A stretch of DNA of 64,000 nucleotides from a virus (lineage: Duplodnaviria; Caudoviricetes): IMG/VR virus record IMGVR_UViG_3300037067_012088, positions 32,001-96,000 of that record; one strand, 5' to 3'. Below the pieces are notes generated by a model. The model worked only from the letters and a program-made list of their open reading frames with translations, was not told where the DNA came from and searched no databases. Shown piece by piece: positions 885 to 37,007 of the stretch. Both the position numbers and the translations under genes were made by a program. How positions within the stretch are numbered: position 1 is the stretch's first letter; each line of letters starts with the position of its first letter.

Positions 885-913
885 TTGACAAGGTCGTCGA
901 ACTCCGTTATGAT
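885..913 (+). promoter_or_regulatory. Sigma70-type promoter TTGACA-N17-TATGAT
   Basis: Near-consensus hexamers upstream of the 958 operon. Confidence 0.8.
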
Positions 914-1428: not shown

Positions 1429-1429
1429 C

Positions 1430-2274: not shown

Positions 2275-2474
2275 CAGACCCCAAACTGGCTTCCCTCACC
2301 TACTCTCCCACCACCATGATTTACACGGTCTGGCAGCGTGGCACCACCATCGCTCTCAAGGATTACCTCAAGTCCCTTGGTGAGGCGGCGGACTGGTGCG
2401 TGGCCAATGGATGGGAGTTGCAGAGTCCTGCGCCGATACACATTACCCCAGAATCTACTACATATGACAACTGA
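2271..2474 (+). CDS. Hypothetical protein
   Basis: ATGA-coupled 67-aa ORF. Confidence 0.55.
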   Translation: MTDPKLASLTYSPTTMIYTVWQRGTTIALKDYLKSLGEAADWCVANGWELQSPAPIHITPESTTYDN

Positions 2475-3558
2475 TACTAAGGATTTTTCGCTCGACGTGG
2501 CCATAAACGGATTGAGCTTCGGAGCAGTCTCCATCGGCATCCTTCGCGAGTGCTACAAACGCGGTCTCCATCCCTCCGTCTTCCCGCTTCAGGGTCAAGT
2601 TGACCTTGGCGCCCAAAAGCCCGATGACGGCTTCAACAAGTGGCTCGGGAACTGCATCAACAAGGCGCATAAGGAGGCGTCGCGCCAGAATACCGCGATC
2701 AAGCTTTGGCATCTCCAAGGCGGACTCAACTCCTACAGCGCCACCAATTCTCGCCTGATCACGTTCCACGAGACCGATCAGATCACGCCTACCGAAATCA
2801 ACGTGCTCAAAAACCAATCTCGTGTCTACGTCACCAGCACTTTCACTCAGCAGGTGTTCAAGATGTTCGGCGTTGAGAGCGAGTATCTCCCGCTTGGATT
2901 CGATTCACACAACTTCCACGTGCTACCGGAACGCCCGCGAGTCAAGGACGTGATTTCGTTTGGTCTAGGGGGTAAGCTCGAAATCCGCAAGGGGCATCTC
3001 AAGGTGCTGGCTCTGTGGGCCAAGAAATACGGTAACAAGCGTGAGTATCGCCTGAACTGTGCTCTCAGTAACCCTTTTCTCAAACCCGAGGTATGGAACG
3101 GCATGGTAGGTCAGGCACTGGAGGGCAAGCAGTATTACAATATCAACTTCCTGAATCACATGCCAACGAACGCTGAGTATAATCAGTTCCTCCAAGCCAA
3201 CGACATCTATCTGGCCATGTCGGGCGGCGAAGGTCGCGACTTGCCGGCGTATCACTCGGTGGCATTGGGGGCTCATATCGTGGCACTCAAGGCTCACGCC
3301 TACAACGACTATCTTACGGATGCGAATGCGGTGCTTGTGACCCCCAATGGGAAGCGTCCGGCAGCGGATGGCGTCTTCTTTCACCCGAATACCCCTTTCA
3401 ACTCGGGCAACTTCTTCGACTTTGGCGAAGACGACTTCCTTGCGGCGTGCGAGAAAGCTGAGGCGCGAGTTAAGACGGGTATCAACGTCGCCGGTCTTGA
3501 GCTACAGAAGCTGACCTACGCGGACACGGTTGACGTGCTACTGAAGGATCTCAAGTGA
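2464..3558 (+). CDS. Glycosyltransferase, GT-B fold (GT4-like)
   Basis: 'LPLGFDSHNF', 'KLEIRKGH', 'SGGEGRDLP' (EGFGLP-like motif); start moved to ATG 2464. Confidence 0.8.
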   Translation: MTTDTKDFSLDVAINGLSFGAVSIGILRECYKRGLHPSVFPLQGQVDLGAQKPDDGFNKWLGNCINKAHKEASRQNTAIKLWHLQGGLNSYSATNSRLITFHETDQITPTEINVLKNQSRVYVTSTFTQQVFKMFGVESEYLPLGFDSHNFHVLPERPRVKDVISFGLGGKLEIRKGHLKVLALWAKKYGNKREYRLNCALSNPFLKPEVWNGMVGQALEGKQYYNINFLNHMPTNAEYNQFLQANDIYLAMSGGEGRDLPAYHSVALGAHIVALKAHAYNDYLTDANAVLVTPNGKRPAADGVFFHPNTPFNSGNFFDFGEDDFLAACEKAEARVKTGINVAGLELQKLTYADTVDVLLKDLK

Positions 3559-3800
3559 ACCGCTTTCCCCCATGGCTCCTTGAGCTAACCACGAATCCCG
3601 ACGACAAGGATGTGCGTTTCCATCTAGCGCGCTTCGAGGGTCCCGTCACCGGTTCCTATTACGGTATCCATGCGTCTATGCCTTATCAACCCCATTCGGG
3701 TTACATGCTTGATGGTCAACTCTACCCCTTGACGGCTTTCAAACCAATCCAGTATCTGCCCGGCAGCGGATGTGGGCTCGTCACCTATGAGCGCGTCTAA
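3555..3800 (+). CDS. Hypothetical protein
   Basis: GTGA-coupled ORF within the operon. Confidence 0.5.
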   Translation: MNRFPPWLLELTTNPDDKDVRFHLARFEGPVTGSYYGIHASMPYQPHSGYMLDGQLYPLTAFKPIQYLPGSGCGLVTYERV

Positions 3801-4590
3801 ACGTATTCTCGTGATCGGAGATACCTGCGAAGATCGCTTCGTCAGTGTGGACGCGAATCGATTGTCACCTGAAGTGCCCGTCGCTGTGGTTTCTCCCTAC
3901 TCCACCACCTCGAACCCCGGTATGGCCGGCAACGTCGCAGCCAATATCCAGTCCCTCGCACCTGAGTGGACCGTGGTGACCCGCTTTCCCGACAAGCCCT
4001 CCATCAAGACGCGCTACGTGGATCGCAAGACCAATCACCACTTCATCCGCATTGATGACGATGTCCATCCCGAACCGCTTGACGGCATCGACTGGCTTAG
4101 CTCCATCAGGATGTGTCCCAATGCCATTGTGCTTTCGGACTATGCCAAGGGCTACCTAACCCGCGATAACATGGAGCGCGTCGCCCGGTTCTGCGCGACT
4201 AATCGCCTTCCCGTTTTCGCCGACACCAAAGCCCTTTTGGGTAGCTGGTCTAACCTCATCACCTTCGTCAAGATCAACGCTCTTGAATTCGACAACCAAA
4301 TCAAAGCCGGAATCTCACCGTGGAAAGAGTGCCAGCATCTTATCGTGACCCGTGGGGGCGCCGGCATTGACCTTTATGCGCAAGATGGCTCTATCGCTCA
4401 TCACGTTGATGCGGTCGGCGGAGAGGTTGTAGATCTTGCGGGTGCGGGTGACAGCACTCTAGCGGCCTTGACTGTAGGCTACATGGAAACCGGAGACATC
4501 AAGCAAGCCATGTCCTTCGCGGCGCGCGTGGCGGGGATTGCGGTGTCAAAACGCGGTGTGGTGGCGGTAAAACGGGAGGAAGTGAAGTGA
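3787..4590 (+). CDS. hldA: D-glycero-D-manno-heptose-7-phosphate kinase (HldE/RfaE domain I, PfkB family)
   Basis: 'ILVIGD', 'NRLSPEVPV', 'GMAGNVAANI', 'LSDYAKG', 'DLAGAGDS' anion-hole motif. Confidence 0.85.
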   Translation: MSASKRILVIGDTCEDRFVSVDANRLSPEVPVAVVSPYSTTSNPGMAGNVAANIQSLAPEWTVVTRFPDKPSIKTRYVDRKTNHHFIRIDDDVHPEPLDGIDWLSSIRMCPNAIVLSDYAKGYLTRDNMERVARFCATNRLPVFADTKALLGSWSNLITFVKINALEFDNQIKAGISPWKECQHLIVTRGGAGIDLYAQDGSIAHHVDAVGGEVVDLAGAGDSTLAALTVGYMETGDIKQAMSFAARVAGIAVSKRGVVAVKREEVK

Positions 4591-5162
4591 TCACTACAGG
4601 AGAGCGTATTCAGCACGACCCTTGGGGGAAAGCCTATACTCTCATCAATAACGGGAGTCAGCCATCGGGCGTGAACTATGTCCCCTATTTCGATATACCG
4701 AACAAGTTTCCGATCACATACGGCCCCCCTACTGAGACATCGACCAACCCCGGCATTCAACCTATCACATTCGCTACTCCTACCTACCACGCCAAGGGGT
4801 GGGGCGAAGAATTGTGGGTGGCTTCGAACGACAAATACTGCGGCAAGATACTCAGGTTTGCCAAGGGGAAAAAGATGTCGCGACACAGTCATGACATAAA
4901 ATCGGAAAGCTGGCTAGTCACTCAAGGAAAACTCAAGATGACATGGTTTGACCTATCTAATGCAGACGAGAAGGAGCGGATTCTCGTTTCCATGGATGTG
5001 GTTCATATCCCGCGTGGCAACCCCCACCAGCTGGAAGCATTAGAGGACTCCGAGGTCTTTGAGGTGAGTGACGCTGACCGGAGTTGGGACAACTACAGGA
5101 TCGGCAAAGGAGACTCGCAGCAAGAGACTCATCTATCTCCCGGTTCACTAGGATACCAATGA
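4587..5162 (+). CDS. Cupin-domain protein (sugar-phosphate isomerase-like)
   Basis: 'KGWGEELW', 'SRHSHDIKSESW', 'HIPRGNPHQL' cupin metal-binding motifs. Confidence 0.75.
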   Translation: MITTGERIQHDPWGKAYTLINNGSQPSGVNYVPYFDIPNKFPITYGPPTETSTNPGIQPITFATPTYHAKGWGEELWVASNDKYCGKILRFAKGKKMSRHSHDIKSESWLVTQGKLKMTWFDLSNADEKERILVSMDVVHIPRGNPHQLEALEDSEVFEVSDADRSWDNYRIGKGDSQQETHLSPGSLGYQ

Positions 5163-5626
5163 CTCTCCCCAAGCTTTGCCTTATCGATAGGGATTCGACC
5201 CTCAACTTCGCTTCCTCCGACCCCGAGTCGCCGCTCTACTACATCACGGACCCCTCTTGTCTCGTGCTCAAGCCCGGCGCGCGCGAGGCGATTCATCTAC
5301 TCAAGGCCCACGGCATCCCCATGATTCTCGTGACTCGTCAGCGGTGCGTCAGCAAAGGCCTCGTTTCGCGCGAAACCGTGGAAGCCATTCATGCGCGACT
5401 TGAGGTTCTTTTGGGTATCGAGTTTGACGGTATCTGCGTTGAGGAAACGGCGGAAGATAAGGGAGCCCTGTATCACGCCATTCTGTCCAACTACCCCATG
5501 AAGCCAGAAGAAGTCGTGCTGTTCGATGATTCGGGCAAAGAGCTTTACGTTGCCAGCCAGATGGGGATACAAACCTATGCCGGAGCCGAACTCCTTGAGT
5601 CAGTAAAACACCTCCTCCACCTATGA
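5159..5626 (+). CDS. gmhB: D-glycero-D-manno-heptose 1,7-bisphosphate phosphatase (HAD IIIA)
   Basis: 'IDRDSTLN' DxDxT motif, 'LKPGAREAI', 'VTRQ', 'FDDS', plus gene context; lacks the usual Cys-rich Zn loop. Confidence 0.75.
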   Translation: MTLPKLCLIDRDSTLNFASSDPESPLYYITDPSCLVLKPGAREAIHLLKAHGIPMILVTRQRCVSKGLVSRETVEAIHARLEVLLGIEFDGICVEETAEDKGALYHAILSNYPMKPEEVVLFDDSGKELYVASQMGIQTYAGAELLESVKHLLHL

Positions 5627-5961
5627 ACACTCTCCTCATTCCCTGTAAGCCCGGCCAAGTGTCTGATGGCTACCATACCTTCGATGAGCTATACGAGCAT
5701 CGCTGCACCCTGTTCCTAGCGCTGATGAAGGCCGCGCCCGGATTGGCGTGGTTCAGTGATAAACACCATGATGGCTCCCAATGGGACGGCTGGTTTATTG
5801 CGGGCATGTGCTTGCCGAGCGGAGATGTGTCCTATCACCTTCCCTCGTCCATGTGGACGTTGGCGTTTCAGACCGGCGCGAAGATGTTGGAGAGGGGGCG
5901 CGAGTGGGATGGTCACACGTCAGCAGATGTAGTGAAGCGCATTCAGGAGTGGATTCGGTGA
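5623..5961 (+). CDS. Conserved phage protein (SDGYHTF...WDGH family)
   Basis: 'SDGYHTFDELYEHR' and 'WDGH' motifs. Confidence 0.7.
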   Translation: MNTLLIPCKPGQVSDGYHTFDELYEHRCTLFLALMKAAPGLAWFSDKHHDGSQWDGWFIAGMCLPSGDVSYHLPSSMWTLAFQTGAKMLERGREWDGHTSADVVKRIQEWIR

Positions 5962-6116
5962 AGACCTATCGCCAACAAGTTGAGGATAACGCCGTAATCG
6001 GGATGCGAGTCTACCGGCAGCGTGGGCCAATGTGGGTTAAGGCTATCTTGACGCTGGTCCTCCCTTTCGCCGCGATTTGGTGGGCGATTCGACCCCTATT
6101 CTACAAGGAAACATGA
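5958..6116 (+). CDS. Small membrane protein
   Basis: GTGA/ATGA coupling at both ends; one hydrophobic segment. Confidence 0.55.
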   Translation: MKTYRQQVEDNAVIGMRVYRQRGPMWVKAILTLVLPFAAIWWAIRPLFYKET

Positions 6117-6511
6117 AAACACTCGTATTCACAGCGGGGTGCTTCGACTCACTCCACAAGGGCCATCTCAAGCTCCTCACCGAGGCGCGCACACTGGGTG
6201 ACTTGCTCATCGTATCCATCAACCGCGACGAGTATCTGGCGCGCAAGGGTCCCGGTCGCCCGATTCGCACGGAAGCCGAGCGGGTGCGTGACCTGTATCA
6301 AACGGGACTGATCGATGAAGTGGTTGTCCATGGAGATTCGCCGTTGGAGTGGGTGGTTAAGCTGAAGCCCGATGTCATCGTGGTGGGAGACGACTATACC
6401 GAGGAGACCACGGTGGGCGCGAGGGAGATTAAGGAATGGAATGGTCGGGTTCACATCGTGGAGAAGATCCCCGGAGTGAGCACGACGGCGATATTGGAGG
6501 AAGCGAAATGA
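6113..6511 (+). CDS. hldC: Heptose-1-phosphate adenylyltransferase (HldE/RfaE domain II)
   Basis: 'FTAGCFDSLHKGH' HxGH motif, 'KGPGRPI', 'VGDDY', 'GVSTT'. Confidence 0.88.
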   Translation: MKTLVFTAGCFDSLHKGHLKLLTEARTLGDLLIVSINRDEYLARKGPGRPIRTEAERVRDLYQTGLIDEVVVHGDSPLEWVVKLKPDVIVVGDDYTEETTVGAREIKEWNGRVHIVEKIPGVSTTAILEEAK

Positions 6512-7470
6512 AGCGTATAACCGTCACAGGCGGATTCGGTTTTATCGGCAGCAATTTGGTCGCCCATCTCAACAGGCGTGGTATCGTGCCCGATGTTGTG
6601 GTGCGCACTCTCGATGAGCAGTGGCGCAATGTGGCGGGTCTGTCGTTCAAACTCATTACCCCCGACGAGATAGTGGACGGTTCAACCGTTGTGGCTCTGG
6701 GCGCGAATGTGGACACGACCGAACCCATGAATCCGACCCTATGGGAGAACAACGTGAACGGTCTACTGGACCTTTGGCGTAAGACAAGGGTGCGGGGCGG
6801 CAGATTCATCTACGCCTCATCTGGCAGCGTTTATGGATCAGAAGAGAAAGACTTTACTGAGCGTATCCATGGTCTCCGGCCGCTTAATGCCTACGCCTTC
6901 TCGAAGCTCCAGATTGACAATACCCTGTTTGGCGGCCTGAAGGAAGCGGACACCTACGGACTGCGTTTCACGAACATCTACGGGCCGCGAGAGAGGCATA
7001 AGGGAGACATGGCCAGTCTGGTGCATAAGGGGTTGACCAAGCAGTTTCCTTTATACGGTTCGACCAATCACGTATATGACCTTAAAAGTCCCAAAAAACC
7101 TTGTTGGCGACTCTTTAAGTCCCATCGTCCCGACATCAAGGATGGAGAGCAGGCCCGTGACTTCTGCTATGTGGAAGACGTATGCCTGGTCATCGAGTTC
7201 TTCTTGGAGGGAGACCAAGCTCCCGGTCTCTACAATTTAGGCACGGGAACAGCCCGCACCTTCAATGACCTCGTCAAAGCGGTTGACCCCGCTCTCCCTA
7301 TCGAGTATACGGACATGCCTGAGGTGTTGCGTAACCAGTATCAGTATTACGCGAAGGCTGACATCACGAAGCTCAGGGCGGCCGGCTACAAAGCCCCCTT
7401 CCTCACCCTAGAGGAGGGAATCGAGAAGACGCGGGAATGGATGAAGCGAGAGGGACAGATTGTCGGGTAA
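6508..7470 (+). CDS. hldD: ADP-L-glycero-D-manno-heptose 6-epimerase
   Basis: 'VTGGFGFIGSN', 'YASSGSVYG', 'PLNAYAFSK', 'YGPRERHKGDMAS', 'LFKSHRPDIKDGEQARDF', 'QYQYYAKADITKLRAAGY'. Confidence 0.9.
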   Translation: MKRITVTGGFGFIGSNLVAHLNRRGIVPDVVVRTLDEQWRNVAGLSFKLITPDEIVDGSTVVALGANVDTTEPMNPTLWENNVNGLLDLWRKTRVRGGRFIYASSGSVYGSEEKDFTERIHGLRPLNAYAFSKLQIDNTLFGGLKEADTYGLRFTNIYGPRERHKGDMASLVHKGLTKQFPLYGSTNHVYDLKSPKKPCWRLFKSHRPDIKDGEQARDFCYVEDVCLVIEFFLEGDQAPGLYNLGTGTARTFNDLVKAVDPALPIEYTDMPEVLRNQYQYYAKADITKLRAAGYKAPFLTLEEGIEKTREWMKREGQIVG

Positions 7471-7491
7471 GGGGACCCGAGAACGGTGTAT
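7466..7491 (+). promoter_or_regulatory. Phage late-type promoter GGTAAGG-N12-GGTGTAT
   Basis: Matches the motif found upstream of the structural genes. Confidence 0.7.
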
Positions 7492-7531
7492 CTCAAACAA
7501 GACATGTTGGATATCGAGACGAACGACTAAG

Positions 7532-7741
7532 ATGAGACAGACCAACGGGGTGCTTCACCCATATTCCATGGAGCCGAAGTCGGCATACAATGAGAGGTTC
7601 CTCAACAGCCCGCGCATGATTGACTTGTTCCCCGACACCACCCAGCGGCGTGAGATGGCTGATCAAGCTTTCGCTGAAAAGTGGGAGAACGCCCTTGTGC
7701 GCGTGACCAAGTTGGACGGGACGATGTTCTTTATTGACTGA
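7532..7741 (+). CDS. Small hypothetical protein
   Basis: ATG 40 nt after a late-type promoter; 'RFL..M..LFPD..QR' pattern resembles a small domain seen near phage head genes. Confidence 0.55.
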   Translation: MRQTNGVLHPYSMEPKSAYNERFLNSPRMIDLFPDTTQRREMADQAFAEKWENALVRVTKLDGTMFFID

Positions 7742-7751
7742 CGGCCCCCTT

Positions 7752-8213
7752 ATGCCTTACTACCTCTTTGAGCGGCCCGACACGGGCGACACGACGGAAG
7801 TGTTCTTTCATATGTCCGACGACAAGGTCTTCAACGGCGAAGACGGCACCGAGGTAGGACTGTGGAAGCGCGTCTATGTGAATCCTCAAGTCTCCACGGA
7901 CACCAACATCGACCCCTTCGACAAGAATGCTTTCATCAACACGCAGCATCACAAGCGCGAGACCTTGGGCACCGCTTTTGACCGTAGTGCCGAACTGAGC
8001 GAGAAGCGCGCCGCGCTAAGAGGTGGCGTGGACCCCATCAAGAAGGCCGCCCTCGACAACTATGCCGCCAAGCGTCATGGAAAGCGTCATCCCGATGAGC
8101 TTAAGCAGGGGGTCAAGAAGGCTACCGATGAGGCGAACAAGGCTCTCAGCAAGCTTGGTATCAAGATCAATCTCAATCAGCCCGTTTCGCGTCGGCTGGC
8201 GGGTAAGGTGTGA
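7752..8213 (+). CDS. FmdB-like protein (degenerate zinc ribbon)
   Basis: 'MPYYLFERPDTGDTTEVFFHMSD' FmdB-type N-terminus without cysteines. Confidence 0.6.
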   Translation: MPYYLFERPDTGDTTEVFFHMSDDKVFNGEDGTEVGLWKRVYVNPQVSTDTNIDPFDKNAFINTQHHKRETLGTAFDRSAELSEKRAALRGGVDPIKKAALDNYAAKRHGKRHPDELKQGVKKATDEANKALSKLGIKINLNQPVSRRLAGKV

Positions 8214-8217
8214 GTAG

Positions 8218-8424
8218 CTAGGTGGATTGACCGCTTATCTGAGCGCGCCGCCACTGATTTCGATAGCGAGTAAACCATATCCATTCGGCCCGCTCTCTTC
8301 CAATCGACGTTCCCACCCTCTCTGACTCAAGCCATTCTATCTTGTCTATCTCCTTCTGCTCTAACAGATACTGCTGATAGTAGTCTGAGGTCTCAATGGG
8401 GAAGGGATTATGATGACCTGTCAT
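8218..8424 (-). CDS. Small protein resembling DUF4032-like proteins of Verrucomicrobia
   Basis: 'YQQYLLEQKEIDKIEWLESERVGTSIGRERA..W..RYR..WR' pattern, recalled not searched; start may be 8442. Confidence 0.65.
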   Translation of the reverse strand: MTGHHNPFPIETSDYYQQYLLEQKEIDKIEWLESERVGTSIGRERAEWIWFTRYRNQWRRAQISGQST

Positions 8425-8435
8425 GCGAAAAAGAG

Positions 8436-8463
8436 TTGACATGGAACCCAAGGATGGTATGAT
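8436..8463 (+). promoter_or_regulatory. Sigma70-type promoter TTGACA-N16-TATGAT
   Basis: Consensus hexamers with TGn extended -10. Confidence 0.7.
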
Positions 8464-8481
8464 AAGAGATACACATAAGAC

Positions 8482-8673
8482 ATGACCGCTTCACTCAAAG
8501 CTACCCTAGACTCAATCCTCAACCAGTGGTTGGAAGATCAAGATACACATGACGACCGTCCCGCAGGATACGCTTGCGATGGACTCGCCGAACTGATGGC
8601 TGACGCCGCTGCTGCGGTTTACGAAGCCTCGCACGCGGGTGCTGTCAAGGGCGAACAGGAAGCTAAGGCATAA
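8482..8673 (+). CDS. Hypothetical protein
   Basis: 63-aa ORF following the promoter. Confidence 0.6.
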   Translation: MTASLKATLDSILNQWLEDQDTHDDRPAGYACDGLAELMADAAAAVYEASHAGAVKGEQEAKA

Positions 8674-8705
8674 GCCCAATCAACTTAACCAACCCAAAAC
8701 ATACT

Positions 8706-9431
8706 ATGGCACTAGGAAAACAAAATCGCGTGGATGGCAAAGCCTTCTCACTCAAGCTCGCAACGAAACGTAACGGCGCATTCCTCCCGCGCCCGGAATG
8801 GGAGGTCTCCTTCAAGCAGGCTGACGGTTCCTATCACACGTATACCAACGAGGAACTGAAAGGTGCCCTCGGCGTGGATGGCCCGCTTTATGATGTGGCC
8901 GGTGACCTGATTGGCGTCGAGACCCGTCTTGGCGAATACGAGGGCTCCCCCATCTACAACGTAACCCTCAACCTGCGCGACCGTGACCGCAATGAGGTCT
9001 ACTTCACCGGGTTTAGTGTGGGCAGCGCGCTCGGTCGCAAGCTGACCAATGCCGTGCTCAACCTTCCCGCGTTCGACAACGTCCAAGTCGGCCTCTACAA
9101 TCAGGTCAACAAGGACACGAAGAAGGTCTACGGTGCCGCTGCCCTCCGTCAGGGCGACAATCCCGCCACGGTCAAGGGCAAGTTCGATTTCAAGCTGGAC
9201 CCGAACCTCCAGCCGCGTGAGTTCGTGGGTAAAGGTGACAAGGTTGAGAAGGACTGGTCCAAGCCCGACCTCTTCCTGTTCGAGCAGCTCAAAGCTTTTG
9301 CGGAAACGGTGAAGGCCAGCAAGCCGGCCAAGCCTGTGACTCAAGAGAAGCCTGCTGAGTCTACTTCGGCATCTGAGACGGATGCGGGTGAAGCCGGTGG
9401 CGAAGAGAAGGCTCCTGCGTTGCCCTTTTAA
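8706..9431 (+). CDS. Putative single-stranded DNA-binding protein
   Basis: Beta-rich core, acidic flexible tail ending in LPF, followed by a terminator. Confidence 0.5.
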   Translation: MALGKQNRVDGKAFSLKLATKRNGAFLPRPEWEVSFKQADGSYHTYTNEELKGALGVDGPLYDVAGDLIGVETRLGEYEGSPIYNVTLNLRDRDRNEVYFTGFSVGSALGRKLTNAVLNLPAFDNVQVGLYNQVNKDTKKVYGAAALRQGDNPATVKGKFDFKLDPNLQPREFVGKGDKVEKDWSKPDLFLFEQLKAFAETVKASKPAKPVTQEKPAESTSASETDAGEAGGEEKAPALPF

Positions 9432-9461
9432 TCAAATCTGTTAGGTGTGTTCATCGTAGTC

Positions 9462-9492
9462 AGGCCTCGGAAACGGGGCCTTTCTGCGTTTT
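9462..9492 (+). terminator. Intrinsic terminator
   Basis: AGGCCTCG-GAAA-CGGGGCCT followed by a T-rich tail. Confidence 0.8.
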
Positions 9493-9518
9493 TAGGGAGG
9501 CTTTATCGAGGGGCGCGG

Positions 9519-9546
9519 TTGACAGTGGCGCGCAGGAGGTTAGGAT
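9519..9546 (+). promoter_or_regulatory. Sigma70-type promoter TTGACA-N16-TAGGAT
   Basis: ATG 9554 lies 7 nt after the -10 box (leaderless). Confidence 0.65.
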
Positions 9547-9553
9547 AAGGGAT

Positions 9554-10609
9554 ATGGCATTTTCTCACTTAACTCCCGAACAGCGTCAAGCTACTTTGGA
9601 TGAATTGATGAGGACTAGATCATTAACTAAGGCTGCCGCTTTGTTTGGCATCAATCCGATGGATGTTCAATATATGAGGAAGAAAGCCGGTATTGGACCA
9701 TTCGTGACCCTACTCTCCAAAAAAGAAATGGACGAAATGGTTTTACTATATAAAACGGGATTAAGTAGTTATGAGGTGGCAAGAAAATTAAATCGCTCAT
9801 ATAAAAGCGTCACAAATGCTTTAGAACGTGCGGGAGAAAATACGAGGGACGCGCATCATTGTAACAAACAATTGAGTGTTAAAGAGGACTATTTCGAATC
9901 TATCGACACTCCCACCAAGGCGTATCTGTTGGGTTTTATTTTTGCCGATGGCAATACTTTTGGCACTCGATTTAAGATGTCTCTAGCAGAAGTCGATAAA
10001 TATTTTCTTGAAATGTTTAAGGCGGAGATTGAACATACAGGAGATCTCTATTTTGAAGAGGTTGAGAAAGAAGAAAGACAGAACATGTGGTCTCTTACGA
10101 TCTACAGTAAGAAAATGACAGACGACTTGAAGAGACATGGAGTTATTGAGAACAAAGAAAATCGAGTAGAATATCCTAGATATCTTCCCAATGAGTTACG
10201 TAGATATTTCTTTCATGGACTACTAGATGGAGACGGATGTGTCACTGCGGATAAGGTTGGTCGCGGAACGACTTTATCGGTAAGCATACATGGAGCTATT
10301 ACTTTGATACCCGAAATAAGGAATGCGATAAGAGAAGAGACGGGGCTAAAAGGAATCTTCATTAAGAAAAAGAAAGGACACGGCTGTCGTGTTAGCTTTC
10401 GTGGAACGCAGGCTATTTTAATGGCTAATTATTTATACGAGATGACATCAAAGTTCTTTCTTAAGAGAAAACTATATCGATATAAAGACATACTAAGCAT
10501 GCTAAGGCTTAGCTATGATAATCGCAGGCCCAATACCAGAAAACAAATCTTGGAAGGAGAGCGTATAATAAATTTACATGAACAGACACCGTATTTTACT
10601 TCAAACTGA
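9554..10609 (+). mobile_element. Free-standing LAGLIDADG homing endonuclease with N-terminal HTH
   Basis: 'AYLLGFIFADG' and 'YFFHGLLDGDG'; markedly AT-rich relative to flanks. Confidence 0.88.
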
Positions 10610-12518
10610 TCCTACAATCGTAAGCACCGGCCTAAGTGAGAACGCTAAGACCCTCCTTCGCTACCTCCACAAGACCGGCAAATATGACCTAGCTCATTAT
10701 TGGCAGCAGGGCACGTCAACCATTCATCCCGAGTTGGGCTATCTACCGTGGAAGGGATATGGCTCCATTCCGCCCGATCCCGCGTTGATTCAACAAATCA
10801 ATTCGGACCCACAGCGCGCCCGAGATGCTAGCTATGGATCGTTCAATATCGACGCCGCAGTCAAAGACTTCAAACCCACGATTTGGATTGGATCAAATGA
10901 CGGATGGGCCTACCCGAAACACGCCTACATGGACAAGCCGTGGTATAAGGCTATCAACTCCGTTCCTCATATCACCATTGATTCCCGCCCGACGCTCGAT
11001 ATGTTTCTTGAGCAGGCTGTCGCATCCAAGTATTATCTCGCGTGGACCAAGTTCGGCGCGAACGAAATGAAGCGACGCGGTCCGCAATACGCACACGTTG
11101 ACTTCATCTATGGAGCGATGGATACCACTAAGTTCTCACCCATTTCAGATAAGGAGGCTATGGACCTTAGACAGCGATTTGGTATCAATCCTACGACCGT
11201 GGTGTTCCTGATGCTGGGACGTAACCAGCTTCGCAAGTCTTATCCGAATGTGCTCGATGGTCTAGCTAGGTTCAAGCGCGAGAATCCTCAGGCCGATGTC
11301 AAGGTTCTGTTTCATACGGCTTTTCACGAACAGGGTCAAGGCTGGAACATTCCCAAGCTTGCCGCAGAATATGGAGTGAACATGGCCGACGTTCTCGCGA
11401 CTTATTCGTGCAAGAAGTGCGGTCAATGGCATGTCCGTCCATTCGTGGGTGAAGATATCGACTGCCCCGCATGTGGTGAAAAGAAATCGTGCATCACGAC
11501 GACTATCGTGAATCGCGTGCCCGATGACGAAATGAAGTATCTCTACGGATTGGCAAACGCCGGAATTACCGCCATGTCCTCAGGTGGCCTCGAATACAAT
11601 TCCGTGCAAACCCTCCTCTGCGGCAAACCCCTCGCTTGCACCAATTACTCTTGTGGTGAAGACTTCTGCGAACAGGATTTCGTGTTCAAGCTCGGCTACT
11701 CCGAATATCACGAGGCCGGCAACAGCTTTATCAAGGCAGCGACGAATCCAGAGGACATCAAGCGTTTCATGACCAAGGTGTGGCGCACATCAACTCGCGA
11801 CATGCAAGCGTGGGGCGAGAAGGGACGGGAATGGGCGGTCAAGACCTTTAGCATCGAGACTATCGGGGCGCAGTGGGAGCGTTTATTCGATTCCATGCCG
11901 TTTCCAAGTTGGGATAGCATTCGGCTGACGCCGGAACCCAAGAACGAAACCTTCCCCTTCCCCGAAATCGAAGATGAGGACACCTTCATTGACACCCTTT
12001 ATCGCGAGATTCTCAAGATGAATGAGCCCAAGTCGGGCAGCGGTTTCGCCAACTGGAAAACGCAGCTTAAGGGTGGTATGTCACGGCAGGACGTGTTCCT
12101 TTACTTTATCGGCGTGGCACAACAGGAGAACGCGCGCAATCAGGTGAAGCCCTTCGATCTCTGGGATTTGATCGACAAGACCACCGGTAAAGCTCGCGCT
12201 CTGTTCGTCATCAAGGAAAGTGGCGGCGATGCTCTTATCTGCACCCAACTCTTCGAATCCTTCCATCGCGAGTATCCTAACCACGATCTCTACATCGCAG
12301 TGGACCCCAAGTTCGCCGACGTATTCGTGGGTAACCCCCACGTGTTTCGCGTGCTCCAGTATCAACCCATGATGGAGAGCGAACTGGCCATGACCGGCGC
12401 GGGCGCGAAGGATGCCTACTTCAACGTGTTTCTACATCCCGCGATCCCCACGCAACGGCATTTGGGCTACTTGTCTTCCAGCACTGCCGCGTTGACCCCT
12501 TATCTCGACTTACCATGA
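10578..12518 (+). CDS. Multidomain glycosyltransferase: GT4-like with CxxC/CxxC insert, small helical domain, and GT9-like N-terminal lobe
   Basis: 'GRNQLRKS', 'SSGGLEY', CKKC/CPAC; C-terminal 'ESGGDALICTQLFESFHREYP...VGNPHV'. Confidence 0.8.
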   Translation: MNRHRILLQTDPTIVSTGLSENAKTLLRYLHKTGKYDLAHYWQQGTSTIHPELGYLPWKGYGSIPPDPALIQQINSDPQRARDASYGSFNIDAAVKDFKPTIWIGSNDGWAYPKHAYMDKPWYKAINSVPHITIDSRPTLDMFLEQAVASKYYLAWTKFGANEMKRRGPQYAHVDFIYGAMDTTKFSPISDKEAMDLRQRFGINPTTVVFLMLGRNQLRKSYPNVLDGLARFKRENPQADVKVLFHTAFHEQGQGWNIPKLAAEYGVNMADVLATYSCKKCGQWHVRPFVGEDIDCPACGEKKSCITTTIVNRVPDDEMKYLYGLANAGITAMSSGGLEYNSVQTLLCGKPLACTNYSCGEDFCEQDFVFKLGYSEYHEAGNSFIKAATNPEDIKRFMTKVWRTSTRDMQAWGEKGREWAVKTFSIETIGAQWERLFDSMPFPSWDSIRLTPEPKNETFPFPEIEDEDTFIDTLYREILKMNEPKSGSGFANWKTQLKGGMSRQDVFLYFIGVAQQENARNQVKPFDLWDLIDKTTGKARALFVIKESGGDALICTQLFESFHREYPNHDLYIAVDPKFADVFVGNPHVFRVLQYQPMMESELAMTGAGAKDAYFNVFLHPAIPTQRHLGYLSSSTAALTPYLDLP

Positions 12519-13738
12519 AGCTTCTCCCCCGCTACGCCTCAATGCTCGGCCTCCAGATAGGCAAGCAGCACCTCCTAGAGCAGTTCTTCCCCCTCTCGTT
12601 CTCGCGCTACATCACCCTGCACGCGGGGTCTGGGATGCCGGGCAAGAATTATCCGTCATTCGCCGAAGTCGTCAACCTCATCAAACCCTATCTCGCCGCC
12701 GCGCATATTGAGATCGTTCAACTGGGAGCCAAAGAAGATGGGCCTATCCCCGGATGTCATCACACCATGGGACAGACCTCCAAGCATCAGGCCAACTATC
12801 TTGTGGGGCGGTCCATGTTACATTTAGCGAACGATTCGATATGGTGCCACCGAGCGGGACATCTAGGTATTCCGTTGGTTGAACTGTTCGCGACAACGAG
12901 TGAGGCGAACCACGCACCTTATCAGTTCGGCTCCAAGACGCGTTTCGTCTCCTCTCATCGGCGCGGTCACAACCCCACTTTCGCGATGCAGGAGAGTCCC
13001 TCAACAGCGGCGTTCATCGACCCCTTCACCGTCGCCCGCGCCGTGCTCGACCTCCTCGAAATCCCGCACACTATCACTCAGCACACCCTCCTCGCCGGTC
13101 AAGCCTACAACGCCACCATGCTGGACTGGATTCCGGACCAAGTGGTCGCTCCCGGCTTTAACCCCGAACTCCCCCTCGCCGCGCGCCTCGATATCCATCA
13201 TGACGAGAACGTGCTGGCCGCGACCCTGAATACGGGGCGCAAGGCCAACATCGTATGTAAGGCCCCCATCGCGCTCCCTCTCCTCGCTCACTTCAAGCCC
13301 AGCATCCAGACCCTCAGCTTCGAGGTCAATGAAGATACACCTCTTGACTACGTGCTCCAGCTTAAGAAGACTCTTCAGGGGCTCACTTTCTTTTCGCGCG
13401 AATCCGACGCCAAGAAGCTGTCCGACATCCGGTTCAAGTTCTTCGATGTGGTTAACGTGCAGCATCTTCCGCACAAGACGCGCGCGGACTTCGAGCGTGA
13501 ATCGGCCGAGTATACCAATCGCCCCGTCGAGGAAGTCAAGATTGATATTGACAACGCTCTCAAGTCTGGTAATCTCAAGTTCAAGACCCAGAAATTCGTG
13601 CTCAACAAGGGAAAGATATACTTGTCACTCGCTCATGCCGCCGCCGATATCCCCATGGAGGGCGATAAGCGTTGTGGCACCGTGATTGACAGTCCCGAGT
13701 TCTGGCGAGACCTCAACCACTTCATGCTTTATGCCTAA
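12515..13738 (+). CDS. GT9 (heptosyltransferase-like) C-terminal lobe fused to an unknown domain
   Basis: 'YITLHAGSG..KNYP', 'IVQLG', 'HLANDSIWCHRAGHLGIPLVELF' (DS..H.A...P...LF motif). Confidence 0.75.
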   Translation: MKLLPRYASMLGLQIGKQHLLEQFFPLSFSRYITLHAGSGMPGKNYPSFAEVVNLIKPYLAAAHIEIVQLGAKEDGPIPGCHHTMGQTSKHQANYLVGRSMLHLANDSIWCHRAGHLGIPLVELFATTSEANHAPYQFGSKTRFVSSHRRGHNPTFAMQESPSTAAFIDPFTVARAVLDLLEIPHTITQHTLLAGQAYNATMLDWIPDQVVAPGFNPELPLAARLDIHHDENVLAATLNTGRKANIVCKAPIALPLLAHFKPSIQTLSFEVNEDTPLDYVLQLKKTLQGLTFFSRESDAKKLSDIRFKFFDVVNVQHLPHKTRADFERESAEYTNRPVEEVKIDIDNALKSGNLKFKTQKFVLNKGKIYLSLAHAAADIPMEGDKRCGTVIDSPEFWRDLNHFMLYA

Positions 13739-13865
13739 GACTCCCAACATTAAACCCTACCAATATCGCGTATCCAAGAAAGGGGCGGTCGAGGTGCGAC
13801 CCCGCTTTCGCAAAGCTAAGCACAAGGGCTACTGTGCCGGCGCATTCGGGAGGCCTGTAAAGTGA
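13731..13865 (+). CDS. Small basic protein (44 aa, below the ORF-track cut-off)
   Basis: MPKTPNIKPYQYRVSKKGAVEVRPRFRKAKHKGYCAGAFGRPVK; overlaps the previous stop and the next GTG. Confidence 0.55.
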   Translation: MPKTPNIKPYQYRVSKKGAVEVRPRFRKAKHKGYCAGAFGRPVK

Positions 13866-14683
13866 GTAACCGTGATGAGAATGGTCTGTTGACCAACACC
13901 ATCTACCCGCGCAAGGAGAGCGGGCTTGTCAACTGGCGAGCCATCCTCCTGCCCGAGCACCTCTACGTCAATCCAGATCACGAGAAGCCGTTGATGATGC
14001 AGTTCGGCGTCACCAATCGCCGCCATATCGATGTGACCAAGGTGGAGGATAGCAAGTTACTGGTCAATCTCGCGGGCTGGCGACACCTCCTCCGTTTGCG
14101 CGGGTTCACGGCAGTGCGGTTTAGCGTGGACTCGACAGCCGAGAAAGTGACCGCCGTCTGCTCCATCGACTTCACCCCCAATTTCGAGACCGGCGGCATC
14201 GCGCAAACGTGGTCTGAGTCCGGTAACGGCTCTCTCTACAACGTGTCGGGCAAGTTCCAGCTCTACCTTGAGACACAGGCCACGAACCGGGCTTTCGCGC
14301 GCTGTGTGCGGACCTACCTTGAGGTGCCCATCTACGGGTTTGACGAATTCGATGCGGCCAAGAACGCCGAGTTCGAGGAAGCCTTGAAGAGTGGCGTGAA
14401 CCCCCTTATCGCGCCCAAGGTGGAGCCCGTTACCTCAACCAACCCCGACCTCAAGGCTTGGGAACGTGTCCGCACCGTGGCAACACAGAAAGGCTTCACC
14501 TTCGAGCAGGTCCGCGCTAGCGCTCAAGGAGTCTACGACAAGTGTCAGAAAGACCCCGAGTTCGCCAAGACCAACCGGCTTAACCTGAATCCCGCTGACT
14601 GGACTGATTTCGGCTCCATTGACGGGTTGGATGCGTATACCATTCTTGACCTGATGGCGAAGGCCGAGAAGCGCAAGAAATAG
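13862..14683 (+). CDS. Putative ssDNA-annealing protein (Rad52/Sak-like fold)
   Basis: 'YLETQATNRAFARCVRTYL' helix after beta strands resembles annealase cores. Confidence 0.45.
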   Translation: MSNRDENGLLTNTIYPRKESGLVNWRAILLPEHLYVNPDHEKPLMMQFGVTNRRHIDVTKVEDSKLLVNLAGWRHLLRLRGFTAVRFSVDSTAEKVTAVCSIDFTPNFETGGIAQTWSESGNGSLYNVSGKFQLYLETQATNRAFARCVRTYLEVPIYGFDEFDAAKNAEFEEALKSGVNPLIAPKVEPVTSTNPDLKAWERVRTVATQKGFTFEQVRASAQGVYDKCQKDPEFAKTNRLNLNPADWTDFGSIDGLDAYTILDLMAKAEKRKK

Positions 14684-15984: not shown

Positions 15985-16356
15985 TTAAGAGGCCCCCGTC
16001 GTATAAGGGGCCGAACACAATACTAACATCTTCTTCGCCACGGACGAATCGCAGACATCGACCTCTCTCAACTGGAACGTAAGCGCCGCCGCCGCCGCAT
16101 TGGGGTGTGCCGCAATGATGGTCTGGACATCCCCTACGTTGAATGAAAGCTGTGCTACCTTGGTGGGCGTCGCTACTCCCGACACCTGTGTCAGGTTGAT
16201 ATAGACTCGCTCCAAGATATCAGGACGTCCCGCTTGCCCGAAGCCAATCGCCTCCCATGTGGTGGCGAGATTGCGCCCAAGATAGAGTTGGGTCCCGTAA
16301 GAGGAACCGGTGGGTGTATAACCTACATTGGTGGGATAATAGATAGGAGTGCTCAT
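15985..16356 (-). CDS. Putative tail-tip protein
   Basis: Last ATGA-coupled gene of the tail operon. Confidence 0.6.
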   Translation of the reverse strand: MSTPIYYPTNVGYTPTGSSYGTQLYLGRNLATTWEAIGFGQAGRPDILERVYINLTQVSGVATPTKVAQLSFNVGDVQTIIAAHPNAAAAALTFQLREVDVCDSSVAKKMLVLCSAPYTTGAS

Positions 16357-18215
16357 AAGAAAGAAAGGGTTTGCGAGATGGGGTTAAGGACATCGGCACC
16401 GGATATCACCAGTGCGGCGGAATCACCGGATACGCCGGAATAGCCAACCTGCCAGTTGATGTAGGTGTTCGGCGGAAAGATACCGGTGGCGCGATATGAG
16501 TCTCCCAGCAGGGGGATAGGCACAAGGCTAGAAGCCGCAGTGCCGGTATACATCGCCCACGAACCGCTAAAGGTCTTGGTTGAGATGACGTTCGTGAGAC
16601 CTGTGATGTAGCCCGAGTATAAACCGCTGCCCGTAATGAGAGTCGGAAACGCGCCCGTATAGGGTTGACCGATGGGATAGACCACCACACCCGTTGACCC
16701 AATCCCGTCCGCGCCGCCGATGAGGTTGCCGTCTCCCGGCGAAACCCAATCGCTGGATATCACGATATCGTTGCCGTCAACGCCCGCCGTCAAAGCGGTC
16801 AGGCGAATGATGGAGGCACCATCATAAACTCCGTTCACACCCACCTCGGTGAAGCCCGACAAGCAAGGTGCGATACCCGTGATCTGAGTAAGGACATCCA
16901 TGAGATAGGTGCCGTCACCCACGCATGAGGGAGCGGGATCGTCGCCGGGACCACCCGCCGCGCGCATGGTGAAGACCGACAGCCCATTGGTGATTGAGAA
17001 CCCATCTGCGGGACTATAGCTTGTGAAGTCGAGATAGCCTGTGGCATAGGTCCCCGCGCCGGTCGGGAAGAGAGACAGACCGTTTAGACCCACTCCGACC
17101 AGAGGATAGGTCACCGTAAGGGTGCCAGACCCGCCGTAGATGAAGCCTGTCGCGAGACCGGTGAAATCGCCCACGGCCAGACCCGTGTAGTTGAATCCCG
17201 ACGCGATGCCCGTTCCCACGCCACTGAAGAACCCGGTCGCAGCACCAGTCGCCCACGCAAAACCCGAGACGGGATAAGTGCCGGTTTGCGAGGCATAGAG
17301 TCCCGTTAAGAGTCCCGACTGCTGGAATCGACCAATTCCCGCCGTTGAAAACCCCGTAGCCGCGCCCGTGGATAGGCCCGAACCCGCCAGATAGCTCAGG
17401 TTGATGTCCAGTAGGGTATCGAATCCCGTGGAGACGAAGCCCCCTGAGTAGTTGAGCCATGTGATATCACGGTTCAGGATGTCGTCCGAATTGAACTCGA
17501 AATCAGTCGGTGCCGTCAGATACACGTAGCGTCCCAGAGAGGTGGCGTCGATGATGTAGAACAGCACGGACTCGTCACCATAGTTGGTGTTGAAGGTCGT
17601 GAGGATGGGTTGCGTCAGATCGAGGTTGACGAAATCACCCGTATACGCGAAGGCCCCCGAGTTGGTGGCGGCGACATTTCCTTGGAGCTTGCCGAAGGTG
17701 TAGTTCTGCGTCGCGAGGATAGTCGAATCGAACACGTTGATAGGATAGCCCCCGTCGTTCACGAAGTAACCTGTCACACCCGCTTGGCCGGTAGTCAGGA
17801 AGTAACCTTGTGTCGTGATGGTGCGTAGAGCAGCATTATCGCCGCTCACGTAAAGATCGAAGGTGGCTCCAAGAGAGGCATTCGCTCTGTTGAAGTAGAA
17901 GTAGTCTACGTTTCCCGTTGCCTTCGGCGAACCGTAGACGAGAGGCGCACCGTCCTTGATGACGTTGGCAGTCCCACTAGTAAACTGGCCTTCAATCGTG
18001 AAGGGTTCGTCCGCCTGATAGGTGTGGATGAACTGGGAGCCGTAGTAGAGGTAACCGCTGCTCAGGGTGAACTGGAGCACCCCTTGCGCGCCGGAGAGGC
18101 CAAACTGATACTGACCAGTGGTGTTATCGACAGTGCAGTTCATGCCAAAACCGTAGTTGCCCGTCTGCGTATATAGGTTGCGATAGACCGCTAATTGAGA
18201 CCCCGTGAATGTCAT
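16353..18215 (-). CDS. Tail tip/fibre-like structural protein
   Basis: 620 aa, G/T/S-rich with many TG/SG dipeptides; in the tail operon. Confidence 0.65.
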   Translation of the reverse strand: MTFTGSQLAVYRNLYTQTGNYGFGMNCTVDNTTGQYQFGLSGAQGVLQFTLSSGYLYYGSQFIHTYQADEPFTIEGQFTSGTANVIKDGAPLVYGSPKATGNVDYFYFNRANASLGATFDLYVSGDNAALRTITTQGYFLTTGQAGVTGYFVNDGGYPINVFDSTILATQNYTFGKLQGNVAATNSGAFAYTGDFVNLDLTQPILTTFNTNYGDESVLFYIIDATSLGRYVYLTAPTDFEFNSDDILNRDITWLNYSGGFVSTGFDTLLDINLSYLAGSGLSTGAATGFSTAGIGRFQQSGLLTGLYASQTGTYPVSGFAWATGAATGFFSGVGTGIASGFNYTGLAVGDFTGLATGFIYGGSGTLTVTYPLVGVGLNGLSLFPTGAGTYATGYLDFTSYSPADGFSITNGLSVFTMRAAGGPGDDPAPSCVGDGTYLMDVLTQITGIAPCLSGFTEVGVNGVYDGASIIRLTALTAGVDGNDIVISSDWVSPGDGNLIGGADGIGSTGVVVYPIGQPYTGAFPTLITGSGLYSGYITGLTNVISTKTFSGSWAMYTGTAASSLVPIPLLGDSYRATGIFPPNTYINWQVGYSGVSGDSAALVISGADVLNPISQTLSFL

Positions 18216-35765: not shown

Positions 35766-37007
35766 TTAGTATCCAACCCCGAACAATCCGATGGACAGAC
35801 CCGTGATGCCGGTGCCGATTCGATAGATGTCGAGACCTACCCGGTTAAGCCCACTGATCTCCTGATTGAGGCCGCCACTGGCCTTGAACACGGTGCCACT
35901 ATTCAGGAAGAAATCGACAAAGTTAGTCTTGGTGTTGAGAGGGGTGCGCTGATAGAATGATCCACTGAAGAAACCTTGGGTGCCGGTATTGATCACCCCG
36001 ATGCTGTAACCCGTGAAGAAGAAGGAGCGACCCACCACGGCTTCGACACTGTTGAGGCCGGTAGCTAGGTTATACTGGTCATACCAGAAAGCCATGTTGA
36101 CGAAGTTACCAGTGATGCCCGAGAAGGTGTAATTGTTGGTTGTGCCGCCCCCAGCATCGATAGCCGATTGTAGGACTCCTGATATCACCAGATCGCGCGC
36201 GGCAAGGACTCCCGACACTCCGCTGACGAACAAGATGTTGGTGGCGCCACTTGGGACGGTGGGAATGGGCACGGTAGGAGAACCAGAGAAGATGTAACCT
36301 CCCGCCAAGACATAGGTGCCGGTAGTGGTGACGGTATCGGGCACACCGCCTGCCGAAGCGGTTCCGCTGACTCGCACATAGGTGCCGTCATAGGTCAATG
36401 TCACGTTACCCACGCCCGTGAAGTTGGGAGCGTTGATAGCTGACGAACCAGTGACCGAAGTATTGCTCCCACCGCCTCCGGCCGCGCCGCTGATGAACAC
36501 CTGATTACCAGAATGGATTACAAGGGTGCCACCCAATCCGGTGAGGTTAACGATGGGAATGGTTGCGGAACCGGTTACGCGAACAGCTGAAAGGGCACCC
36601 GACATGTTGGTGGTGAAACCCGATAGAGAAGAAAGGCCCGTCGCGGCCAAACCGGATTCGTAGGTGATTTGGGCGTTGAGGATACCCGATGTTCCCGAAA
36701 CGACAAGGTTGGTGGCGAGTTGTCCTGTAAGCACACCGCTGAGTGTCAGATCCTTGTCGAGCACCCATTGGGTTTGGGGAACCGAACTGACGGAGCCGGA
36801 ATAGGGGACGAGAGGAGAGGTGACAAATGTCTTTTCTCCCAGTATTGTCTGAGGGCCGCCAGAAACCGCCATCAAGTAGTCACCCAAGTAACCGCTTTCT
36901 GAGACGTAGGCTAGGATATTCTGATTGAACGCGTCGCCACTTGCCGACTGTTGGACGAACAACGTCAGCTCTGTCTCGTTAATTTGTTTGACCGCAATCT
37001 TGCTCAT
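35766..37007 (-). CDS. Neck/collar fibre-like structural protein
   Basis: 'QTILGEKTF' fibre motif; about 35 SG/TG dipeptides in 413 aa. Confidence 0.65.
   Translation of the reverse strand: MSKIAVKQINETELTLFVQQSASGDAFNQNILAYVSESGYLGDYLMAVSGGPQTILGEKTFVTSPLVPYSGSVSSVPQTQWVLDKDLTLSGVLTGQLATNLVVSGTSGILNAQITYESGLAATGLSSLSGFTTNMSGALSAVRVTGSATIPIVNLTGLGGTLVIHSGNQVFISGAAGGGGSNTSVTGSSAINAPNFTGVGNVTLTYDGTYVRVSGTASAGGVPDTVTTTGTYVLAGGYIFSGSPTVPIPTVPSGATNILFVSGVSGVLAARDLVISGVLQSAIDAGGGTTNNYTFSGITGNFVNMAFWYDQYNLATGLNSVEAVVGRSFFFTGYSIGVINTGTQGFFSGSFYQRTPLNTKTNFVDFFLNSGTVFKASGGLNQEISGLNRVGLDIYRIGTGITGLSIGLFGVGY

Follow-up and report, generated by a model that had tools for sequence, protein, structure and literature searches.

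The heptose operon and the split glycosyltransferase

In this study, we have explored a 64,000-nucleotide stretch of DNA (hereafter the window; bases 32001-96000) from the 191,387-bp IMG/VR record IMGVR_UViG_3300037067_012088, an uncultured tailed phage with a completeness estimate of 92%. On its plus strand lie a putative operon for the synthesis of an ADP-heptose-type sugar donor (positions 2464-7470) and, downstream of it, a pair of glycosyltransferase (GT) genes. The genes that the first-pass annotation had named here (kinase, phosphatase, adenylyltransferase, 6-epimerase, a GT4 and a GT4/GT9 pair) were all recovered in place by open reading frame (ORF) calling and family scans. To these we add a cupin gene (4587-5162), a WDGH-domain gene (5623-5961), the genes of a spacer of ~3 kb between operon and pair, the absence of GmhA, and further glycan genes upstream of the window. 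Relatives were collected by an alignment-based search that returned at least 553 IMG/VR stretches, and 86 loci were examined. The operon and the pair comprise, in order:

2464..3558 (+), GT1, a GT-B, weakly GT4-like glycosyltransferase, first gene of the operon (PHROG 4356/2170 glycosyltransferase, E 1e-9; PDB 5I45, E 0.004)
3555..3800 (+), small ORF of 81 amino acids that overlaps both neighbours
3787..4590 (+), HldA-like PfkB kinase (TIGR02198, rfaE_dom_I; PDB 4E84)
4587..5162 (+), metal-binding cupin with His/His/Glu/His motifs, candidate sedoheptulose-7-phosphate isomerase or CapF-like nucleotide-sugar epimerase (PF01050, phrog_7851)
5159..5626 (+), HAD-superfamily phosphatase with a DRDST motif, presumed heptose-1,7-bisphosphate 7-phosphatase (PF00702, E 5e-7)
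5623..5961 (+), WDGH-domain protein (PF25311, E 9e-35), absent from the relatives L019-L021
6113..6511 (+), HldC-like heptose-1-phosphate adenylyltransferase (TIGR02199; PF01467)
6508..7470 (+), HldD-like ADP-glycero-manno-heptose 6-epimerase (TIGR02197; PDB 4EJ0, 1EQ2, 2X6T)
10578..12518 (+), GT646, a 646-residue fusion of a GT4 domain, DUF4214 and a probable GT9-type N-lobe (residues ~535-646), with 742 homologues
12515..13738 (+), GT9C, 407 residues, a GT9 C-lobe (donor-binding, residues 1-185) and an alpha/beta domain (198-407), ATGA-coupled to the GT646 gene

The operon is translationally coupled, with four-base ATGA/GTGA overlaps at four junctions, and its enzymes have specific matches at the level of protein families. 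For the kinase, the top NCBIfam model is rfaE_dom_I (TIGR02198; E 8e-41, 140 bits against a cut-off of 345), the next family, ribokinase, follows at 2e-10, and the best solved relative is the heptose-7-phosphate kinase HldA (4E84, E 4e-14). The adenylyltransferase matches rfaE_dom_II (TIGR02199) at E 1e-35 (123 bits, cut-off 181.5), with the next family at 3e-12. The epimerase reaches 244 bits with TIGR02197 (cut-off 274.6); its top four PDB matches are all ADP-heptose 6-epimerases (E ~1e-41), other short-chain dehydrogenases/reductases (SDRs) come at 1e-12 or worse, and its GPRE-HKG-MAS stretch aligns with the solved HldD structures. The HAD phosphatase carries a DxDxT motif and matches the GmhB model weakly (E 8e-8, 32 bits against a cut-off of 178). 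Scores under the cut-offs are as expected for diverged phage copies. A PfkB kinase combined with an HldC-type transferase and HldD is a marker of the ADP/beta route, as opposed to the GDP/alpha route, and we therefore read the phage pathway as ADP/beta. The earlier proposal that the phage makes its own heptose donor, of ADP-heptose type, is thus well supported by these family-level identities (HldA-, HldC- and HldD-like), for a pathway that is without GmhA unless the cupin does that step.

When compared with the bacterial ADP-L-glycero-beta-D-manno-heptose pathway, the phage set shares the separate kinase and adenylyltransferase of the Burkholderia type (HldA/HldC), a HAD phosphatase, and an HldD-type epimerase with the stretch described above. 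It differs in that its phosphatase is not a GmhB equivalog and its scores lie under curated cut-offs, in that a phage carries the genes, with a glycosyltransferase gene at their head, and in that the SIS-fold isomerase GmhA is missing, a metal cupin like those of phosphomannose isomerase (PMI) standing in the operon instead. The GmhA family (PF13580) gave no match in six frames of the 191-kb phage, while control genomes gave matches. Because the phage is without GmhA and the isomerisation of sedoheptulose-7-phosphate is the step left open, the cupin becomes the isomerase candidate. It matches the type II PMI cupin family PF01050 at 24.3 bits, just above the cut-off of 23.6, and phrog_7851 at E 2e-32, with the metal-ligand motifs G-x5-HxH-x4-E and PxG-x2-H. 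A 52%-identical cupin is immediately followed by kinase and adenylyltransferase genes in 11 of 11 IMG/VR loci, and a SIS match was absent from the five of these 11 cupin-bearing contigs that were examined. Within cultured phages, only 35 records, all of cyanomyophages, contain the family, and in most of them it adjoins heptose-pathway genes. We consider that this gene context supports a role of the cupin in the heptose pathway. The fold search did not serve to assign its reaction, as CapF (Z 16.0), an archaeal PMI (Z 15.1) and lyxose isomerase (Z 14.7) tie; a WbuC-family match was sub-threshold. On balance we lean slightly towards a sedoheptulose-7-phosphate isomerase that replaces GmhA, and hold a nucleotide-heptose epimerase to be possible, if doubtful. 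Our literature search found no paper on the substitution of a cupin for GmhA.

The same cupin family is found in marine cyanomyophages (P-SSM2, S-SSM7, P-TIM68, S-CAM1 and others), at 37-43% identity and beside kinase, nucleotidyltransferase and epimerase genes; there too, no SIS protein was detected. These phages differ in being a separate lineage of T4-like myoviruses without the GT646/GT9C pair. Phage heptose genes as such are already annotated in public cyanophage genomes. In the Synechococcus phage S-SSM7 (L012:6784-7119) and the Prochlorococcus phage P-TIM68 (L013:7393-7731), proteins of 111-112 amino acids are named "phosphoheptose isomerase" in RefSeq and the adjoining cupins "cysteine dioxygenase"; both names look wrong. 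We rejected the small protein as a GmhA co-existing with the cupin: at 111 residues it has no SIS match and carries a HAD-like KP...DD motif. It is unrelated to the WDGH protein.

Downstream of the operon, the first-pass annotation had described a GT4/GT9 pair. A GT9-type transferase is indeed present, but it is split over the two genes, with the probable N-lobe fused behind GT4-DUF4214. The AlphaFold2 model of GT9C has a pLDDT (model confidence) of 94, and its C-lobe retrieves all four solved GT9 types (WaaF, Z 18.4; WaaC, 17.3; 3TOV, 16.7; TibC, 15.8), with one unrelated chain at Z 15.0 and other GT-B lobes at 12.5 or less. The family profile aligns with WaaF (1PSW) at E 2.5e-10, starting at WaaF residue 129, so that ~128 N-lobe residues are missing. 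An NDS..H motif (D107, S108 and H112 invariant) and a near-invariant K44 are retained, which we take to correspond to D261 and K192 of WaaC. Against Pfam PF01075, GT9C itself scores 17.4 bits, under the gathering score of 22, and many homologues carry a precomputed match to this family. In the NCBIfam scan, heptosyltransferase II is the sole heptosyltransferase-type model listed at E <= 0.01, and no BAHT (TibC/Aah) model is among those matches. The invariant columns hold no conserved Cys; the fold score of TibC lies ~2.6 below that of WaaF and within ~1 of 3TOV. For the C-terminal domain, the fold search gave no convincing match (best Z 9.2, a radical-SAM epimerase).

GT646 is known from 742 detectable homologues, the best 120 being 49-83% identical over the full length. 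Its GT4 domain carries a conserved CxxC...CxxC knuckle and has the chlorovirus glycosyltransferase B736L as its best, though weak, PDB sequence match (E 0.0095). In the tail, G550-D551 is invariant among 30 homologues, and weak in-register matches to GT9 N-lobes (3TOV residues 8-63, E 0.16; hhalign, E 0.026) include the second GT9 of this same phage. Judged from these proteins and their genes, the split is real and no assembly artefact, because the 64 homologues of GT9C nearly all measure ~400-414 amino acids (five are shorter, probably partial), because at locus L020 a homing endonuclease is inserted between the GT646 and GT9C genes, and because a fused form was not found among longer proteins, which is weak evidence.

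The solved GT9 enzymes WaaC and WaaF (2H1F, 1PSW), 3TOV and TibC (4RAP) share the C-lobe fold and the donor-binding signature with GT9C, but carry both lobes on one polypeptide of ~320-350 amino acids, whereas the probable phage N-lobe lies behind GT4 and DUF4214 and the phage C-lobe has an extra domain of 210 residues. Moreover, the iron-finger cysteines of TibC are not conserved in the phage C-lobe protein. Alg13/Alg14 is a eukaryotic split GT-B UDP-GlcNAc transferase whose two lobes are separate polypeptides that must associate. The phage proteins resemble it in placing the two lobes of one GT-B enzyme on separate polypeptides; they differ in belonging to another GT family and in the additional domains to which either half is joined, and the GT646 tail would presumably associate with GT9C in trans. 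Viral GT9-like proteins are already in structure libraries. The literature that we searched describes neither the split GT4+GT9 pair, nor its conservation next to fibre genes throughout the clade, nor the cassette-like supply operon.

Conservation and genomic setting

The two parts of this gene set differ in how widely they are kept. The GT9C gene follows the GT646 gene in 86 of 86 related loci, and a 273-residue gene follows the pair in 83, the other three loci ending within ~1.5 kb of GT9C. Heptose genes are found among these 86 loci in the three closest relatives only (L019-L021), once in another place and orientation. Of the records of 13 relatives, two have clear HldD-like or HldC-like genes and another two have weaker ones. 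Homologues of GT1 (36-82% identical; loci L019-L027, L068, L073 and L101) are kept in relatives without heptose genes, and a 96%-complete relative keeps both GT1 and the GT pair without them. From this pattern we conclude that the GT pair is the core, and that the heptose genes form an accessory cassette for donor supply, inserted behind GT1. A distant, 100%-complete relative (L078:6644-8017) has no heptose operon in front of the GT pair, the genes there being a HAD-nucleotidyltransferase fusion and WavE-, GT25- and RXYLT1-like genes; the GT core stays the same while the genes for sugar supply around it change. A near-identity DNA search of cultured phages with the cluster and a tblastn search with GT646 gave no match, so that proteomic data from a cultured relative are not available for comparison.

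Nearly all genes of the window are on the minus strand, including a long structural module with the tape-measure and portal genes. The exception is one plus-strand block (window ~950-15,650), which converges on the end of the tail/fibre operon and contains the heptose and GT genes. Apart from these, it includes:

885..913 (+), sigma70-type promoter TTGACA-17-TATGAT (11/12 consensus positions), intergenic, before the first plus-strand gene, heading the block into the GT/heptose operon
7454..7492 (+), copy of a late-type promoter motif, GGTAA...N...CGGTGTATC, just 3' of the epimerase gene and directed downstream
9554..10609 (+), LAGLIDADG homing endonuclease gene that runs into the start of GT646, a mobile insert outside the pathway
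13862..14683 (+), the 273-residue gene that follows the GT pair

The late-type motif precedes many minus-strand structural genes, and occurs before and within the plus-strand block, besides the sigma70-type promoters at its head; the promoter types in the block do not discriminate between acceptors. Just upstream of GT1, an ORF of 180 amino acids (window 1732-2274, +) resembles a small sigma factor, with a region-4-like helix-turn-helix near its C-terminus and no Pfam match; it could direct the GGTAAAC...CGGTGTATC late promoters. The 81-residue ORF behind GT1 belongs to no family, and a tblastn search of the 86 related loci retrieved no counterpart; at L019, an 83-residue gene occupies the equivalent position. 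The ~3-kb spacer holds small ORFs, the LAGLIDADG endonuclease and a conserved gene of 241 amino acids (window 8706-9431, +). The latter has an acidic tail with ...APALPF reminiscent of single-stranded DNA-binding protein C-termini, an identity that we did not retain since Pfam, PHROGs and the atlas are all without a match. Similarly, the 273-residue gene as a Rad52/Sak-like annealing protein is unconfirmed, with atlas leads at 0.90 only and no match of its profile to PDB sequences. Homing endonucleases of LAGLIDADG or HNH type sit at varying spots in the GT block (window 9554-10609, L020:9228-10004, L022:5855-6784).

Upstream of the window, the phage carries a wider glycan gene set: a GDP-mannose 4,6-dehydratase, a DegT-family aminotransferase, a second GT9, GT2-like and GT-B genes and a sugar-type methyltransferase, together with a nucleoside-hydrolase-like protein and DNA methyltransferases. 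The dehydratase (E 1e-75) and the aminotransferase (E 1.5e-43) suggest a perosamine-type amino-sugar route (genome 7797-8825, 14584-15423 and 15420-16559, the second GT9 included); the second GT9-family gene encodes 279 amino acids and overlaps the aminotransferase gene. At genome 22554-29349 (L018:8554-15349), directly downstream of the DNA methyltransferases, lie a GT-B gene, two genes that are GT-A-like by eye, the nucleoside-hydrolase-like gene, a 212-residue gene without Pfam match and a Bles03/DUF1917 gene. In all, the arsenal amounts to ~ten GT-like genes, an aminotransferase and a methyltransferase. The first-pass annotation had noted no scaffold or export genes for lipopolysaccharide (LPS) alongside the cluster. 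In the whole phage, a crude hydropathy scan for multi-pass membrane proteins revealed neither a flippase nor a polymerase, ligase or initiating polyprenyl transferase, its one find being a spanin-like gene.

Acceptor and competing explanations

We propose that sedoheptulose-7-phosphate is isomerised, probably by the cupin given that no GmhA exists in the phage, and that heptose-7-phosphate would then be phosphorylated at C1 by the HldA-like kinase and lose its C7 phosphate to the HAD phosphatase. HldC-like adenylylation and HldD-like C6 epimerisation would yield ADP-L-glycero-beta-D-manno-heptose. This translationally coupled cassette, headed by the GT-B transferase GT1, would be an add-on that frees a subclade from the donor supply of the host. 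The clade-wide transferase would be a two-gene enzyme, with a GT9 N-lobe (bearing the presumed catalytic Asp) behind GT4 and DUF4214 and a separate donor-binding C-lobe with its extra domain; the two proteins presumably assemble in trans, in the manner of Alg13/Alg14, into an enzyme with two activities. Most likely, the sugar is transferred to a soluble macromolecule in the cytoplasm, because genes for a lipid carrier, flippase or polymerase are not found in the phage, nor is a hydroxymethyl-pyrimidine-making enzyme. As in the first-pass annotation, we favour virion proteins, namely the phage's own fibre and others, which would be glycosylated before or during assembly. Taken as a whole, this explanation (heptose supply cassette, split GT4/GT9 enzyme, virion proteins as acceptor) is our preferred one, held tentatively and not quite to the point of calling it probable. 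Three proteins of the minus strand could be acceptors:

16353..18215 (-), 620-residue [S/T]-G-rich protein, last large gene of the convergent tail/fibre operon, candidate acceptor ([ST]G at 7.4% of positions; genome median, 0.8%)
20416..21996 (-), 526-residue [S/T]-G-rich tail-region protein, candidate acceptor by its [ST]G content
35766..37007 (-), 413-residue [S/T]-G-rich structural-module protein, candidate acceptor (8.7% [ST]G positions)

Adjoining the last of these, a structural-module protein of 275 amino acids (window 34949-35776, -) consists mostly of glycine runs with Ser/Thr/Asn.

Across the relatives, the first large ORF after the trio of GT646, GT9C and the 273-residue gene is convergent and fibre-like in 68 of 80 loci, reaching up to 2,618 amino acids and, in one representative locus, containing an endosialidase-chaperone domain. 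All of the 40 most [S/T]-G-dense ORFs (out of 1,210) occupy this position, and in two further relatives the GT pair abuts tape-measure and minor-tail genes. What this gives to virion proteins as acceptor is circumstantial: the fibre synteny and the dense ORFs stand, but they represent one conserved architecture rather than independent evidence. The GTs have ordinary isoelectric points, which give no preference for one acceptor over another. A model for such an acceptor is available in mycobacteriophages, where glycosyltransferases encoded by the phage glycosylate its capsid and tail proteins (Freeman et al. 2023, as cited in PMC12619734). The enzymes and the host type are unrelated to those considered here, and heptose is not reported there.

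Several points weigh against the explanation that we prefer. Every heptose enzyme scores under the curated NCBIfam equivalog cut-offs, the best fold match of the cupin is the nucleotide-sugar 3-epimerase domain of CapF, so that it may not be an isomerase, and the GT9 N-lobe assignment of the GT646 tail rests on weak matches. Most members of the clade are without heptose genes, so the GT9 donor could differ. The acceptor is proposed from gene neighbourhood in one clade, whose loci are not independent; [S/T]-G richness is ordinary for fibres in general; and the plus-strand block has early-looking sigma70-type promoters and replication- or recombination-type genes. Finally, the nearest GT9 structures are the LPS enzymes WaaF and WaaC and not the protein heptosyltransferase TibC, with Z scores that are nearly tied. 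The broader proposition, in which a clade of uncultured phages of ~100-220 kb (at least 553 contigs) uses the split GT4+GT9 to O-heptosylate its own beta-helical fibres at [S/T]-G turns, and some members carry the full ADP-heptose pathway with the cupin at its first step, appears to us somewhat unlikely.

Remodelling of the host envelope is the alternative that survives best, and we regard it as unlikely. The phage GTs would act at the inner membrane face on the LPS core or another host glycolipid, which the host would export, and the surface would be altered, for example against superinfection or against progeny sticking to debris. Genome papers have read cyanophage and pelagiphage heptose/rfaE genes in this way (PMC7378029, PMC7029224). 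The kinship of the GT9 C-lobe with WaaF and WaaC fits such a role, as do LPS-type enzymes (WavE-like and GT25-like) encoded in one relative's GT block, the perosamine-type route to an O-antigen sugar (dehydratase and DegT aminotransferase) and the early-looking sigma70-type promoters that head the block. However, the phage has none of the initiating polyprenyl-phosphate transferase, flippase, polymerase or ligase, and lysogeny genes were not seen in the annotated regions; the best-known cases of surface remodelling come from temperate phages. The strict conservation of the GT pair beside fibre genes in hundreds of contigs also fits a virion role better than a host-specific edit of the surface.

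Quite improbable, in our judgement, is that the pathway or the GT9 does not use L,D-heptose: a CapF-like cupin might give a modified nucleotide-heptose, or the split GT9 might use another donor and the heptose go to GT1 or to some other soluble target, be it a small molecule or a host protein. The CapF C3-epimerase domain as top fold match, the sub-threshold WbuC-family match, the equivalog scores, the lack of heptose genes in most phages with the GT pair and the position of GT1, rather than the GT9 pair, at the head of the operon are all compatible with this. Nevertheless, the epimerase resembles HldD specifically, other SDRs matching it 30 orders of magnitude less well, the specific likeness of the kinase is to HldA and that of the transferase to HldC, and the NDS..H and Lys signature is kept in the GT9 C-lobe; a pathway without an isomerase would, moreover, have no entry point unless supplied by the host.

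The explanation that we find least probable, DNA modification, in which the GTs would place heptose or other sugars on modified bases against restriction, has a precedent in the heptosylated 5-hydroxymethylcytosine (5hmC) made by a HAD/kinase, cytidylyltransferase and GT-B cluster of metagenomic phages (Pyle et al., bioRxiv 10.1101/2023.12.21.572611) and some footing in the genes here, with two C5-cytosine methyltransferase genes (PF00145; genome 29873-31650, a short way upstream of the window and ~2.8 kb ahead of GT1), after which come a GT-B and the two genes that look GT-A-like, and a GT pair among replication- and recombination-type genes behind early-type promoters, but is weakened relative to the first-pass annotation because neither a thymidylate-synthase-family gene (PF00303; controls gave matches) nor a Tet_JBP gene (PF12851; searched without a positive control) was found in this 92%-complete phage or 13 relatives (14 of 14 records). 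The likeness to the clusters of Pyle et al. extends to phage sugar activation, GT-B/GT-A enzymes and nearby C5 methyltransferases; the differences are that no 5mYOX/TET or ThyS homologue was detected here, that the methyltransferase genes look broken, and that the glycan set is far larger, in excess of the mono- to trisaccharides known on DNA. Both methyltransferase genes (L018:15873-17650, minus) change frame within the Pfam match and so seem frame-shifted; one contains a (GT)11 repeat at genome 30250-30271, the only long dinucleotide repeat of the genome. The frame changes could be phase variation, decay or assembly error.

Implications for phage biology

Phage heptose genes have long been annotated as LPS genes without a demonstrated target. 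If the broader proposition on O-heptosylated fibres is true, phages would have their own equivalent of the system by which bacteria heptosylate autotransporters, and if the sugar is on virion fibres, heptose-containing glycans would join the few known glycosylated phage particles. Heptosylated fibres would then have a bearing on host recognition, particle stability and the immune recognition of phages. The split GT9-GT4 pair is compact and widely conserved and could be expressed, and the cupin, if it is an isomerase, would represent a non-orthologous replacement of a textbook enzyme.

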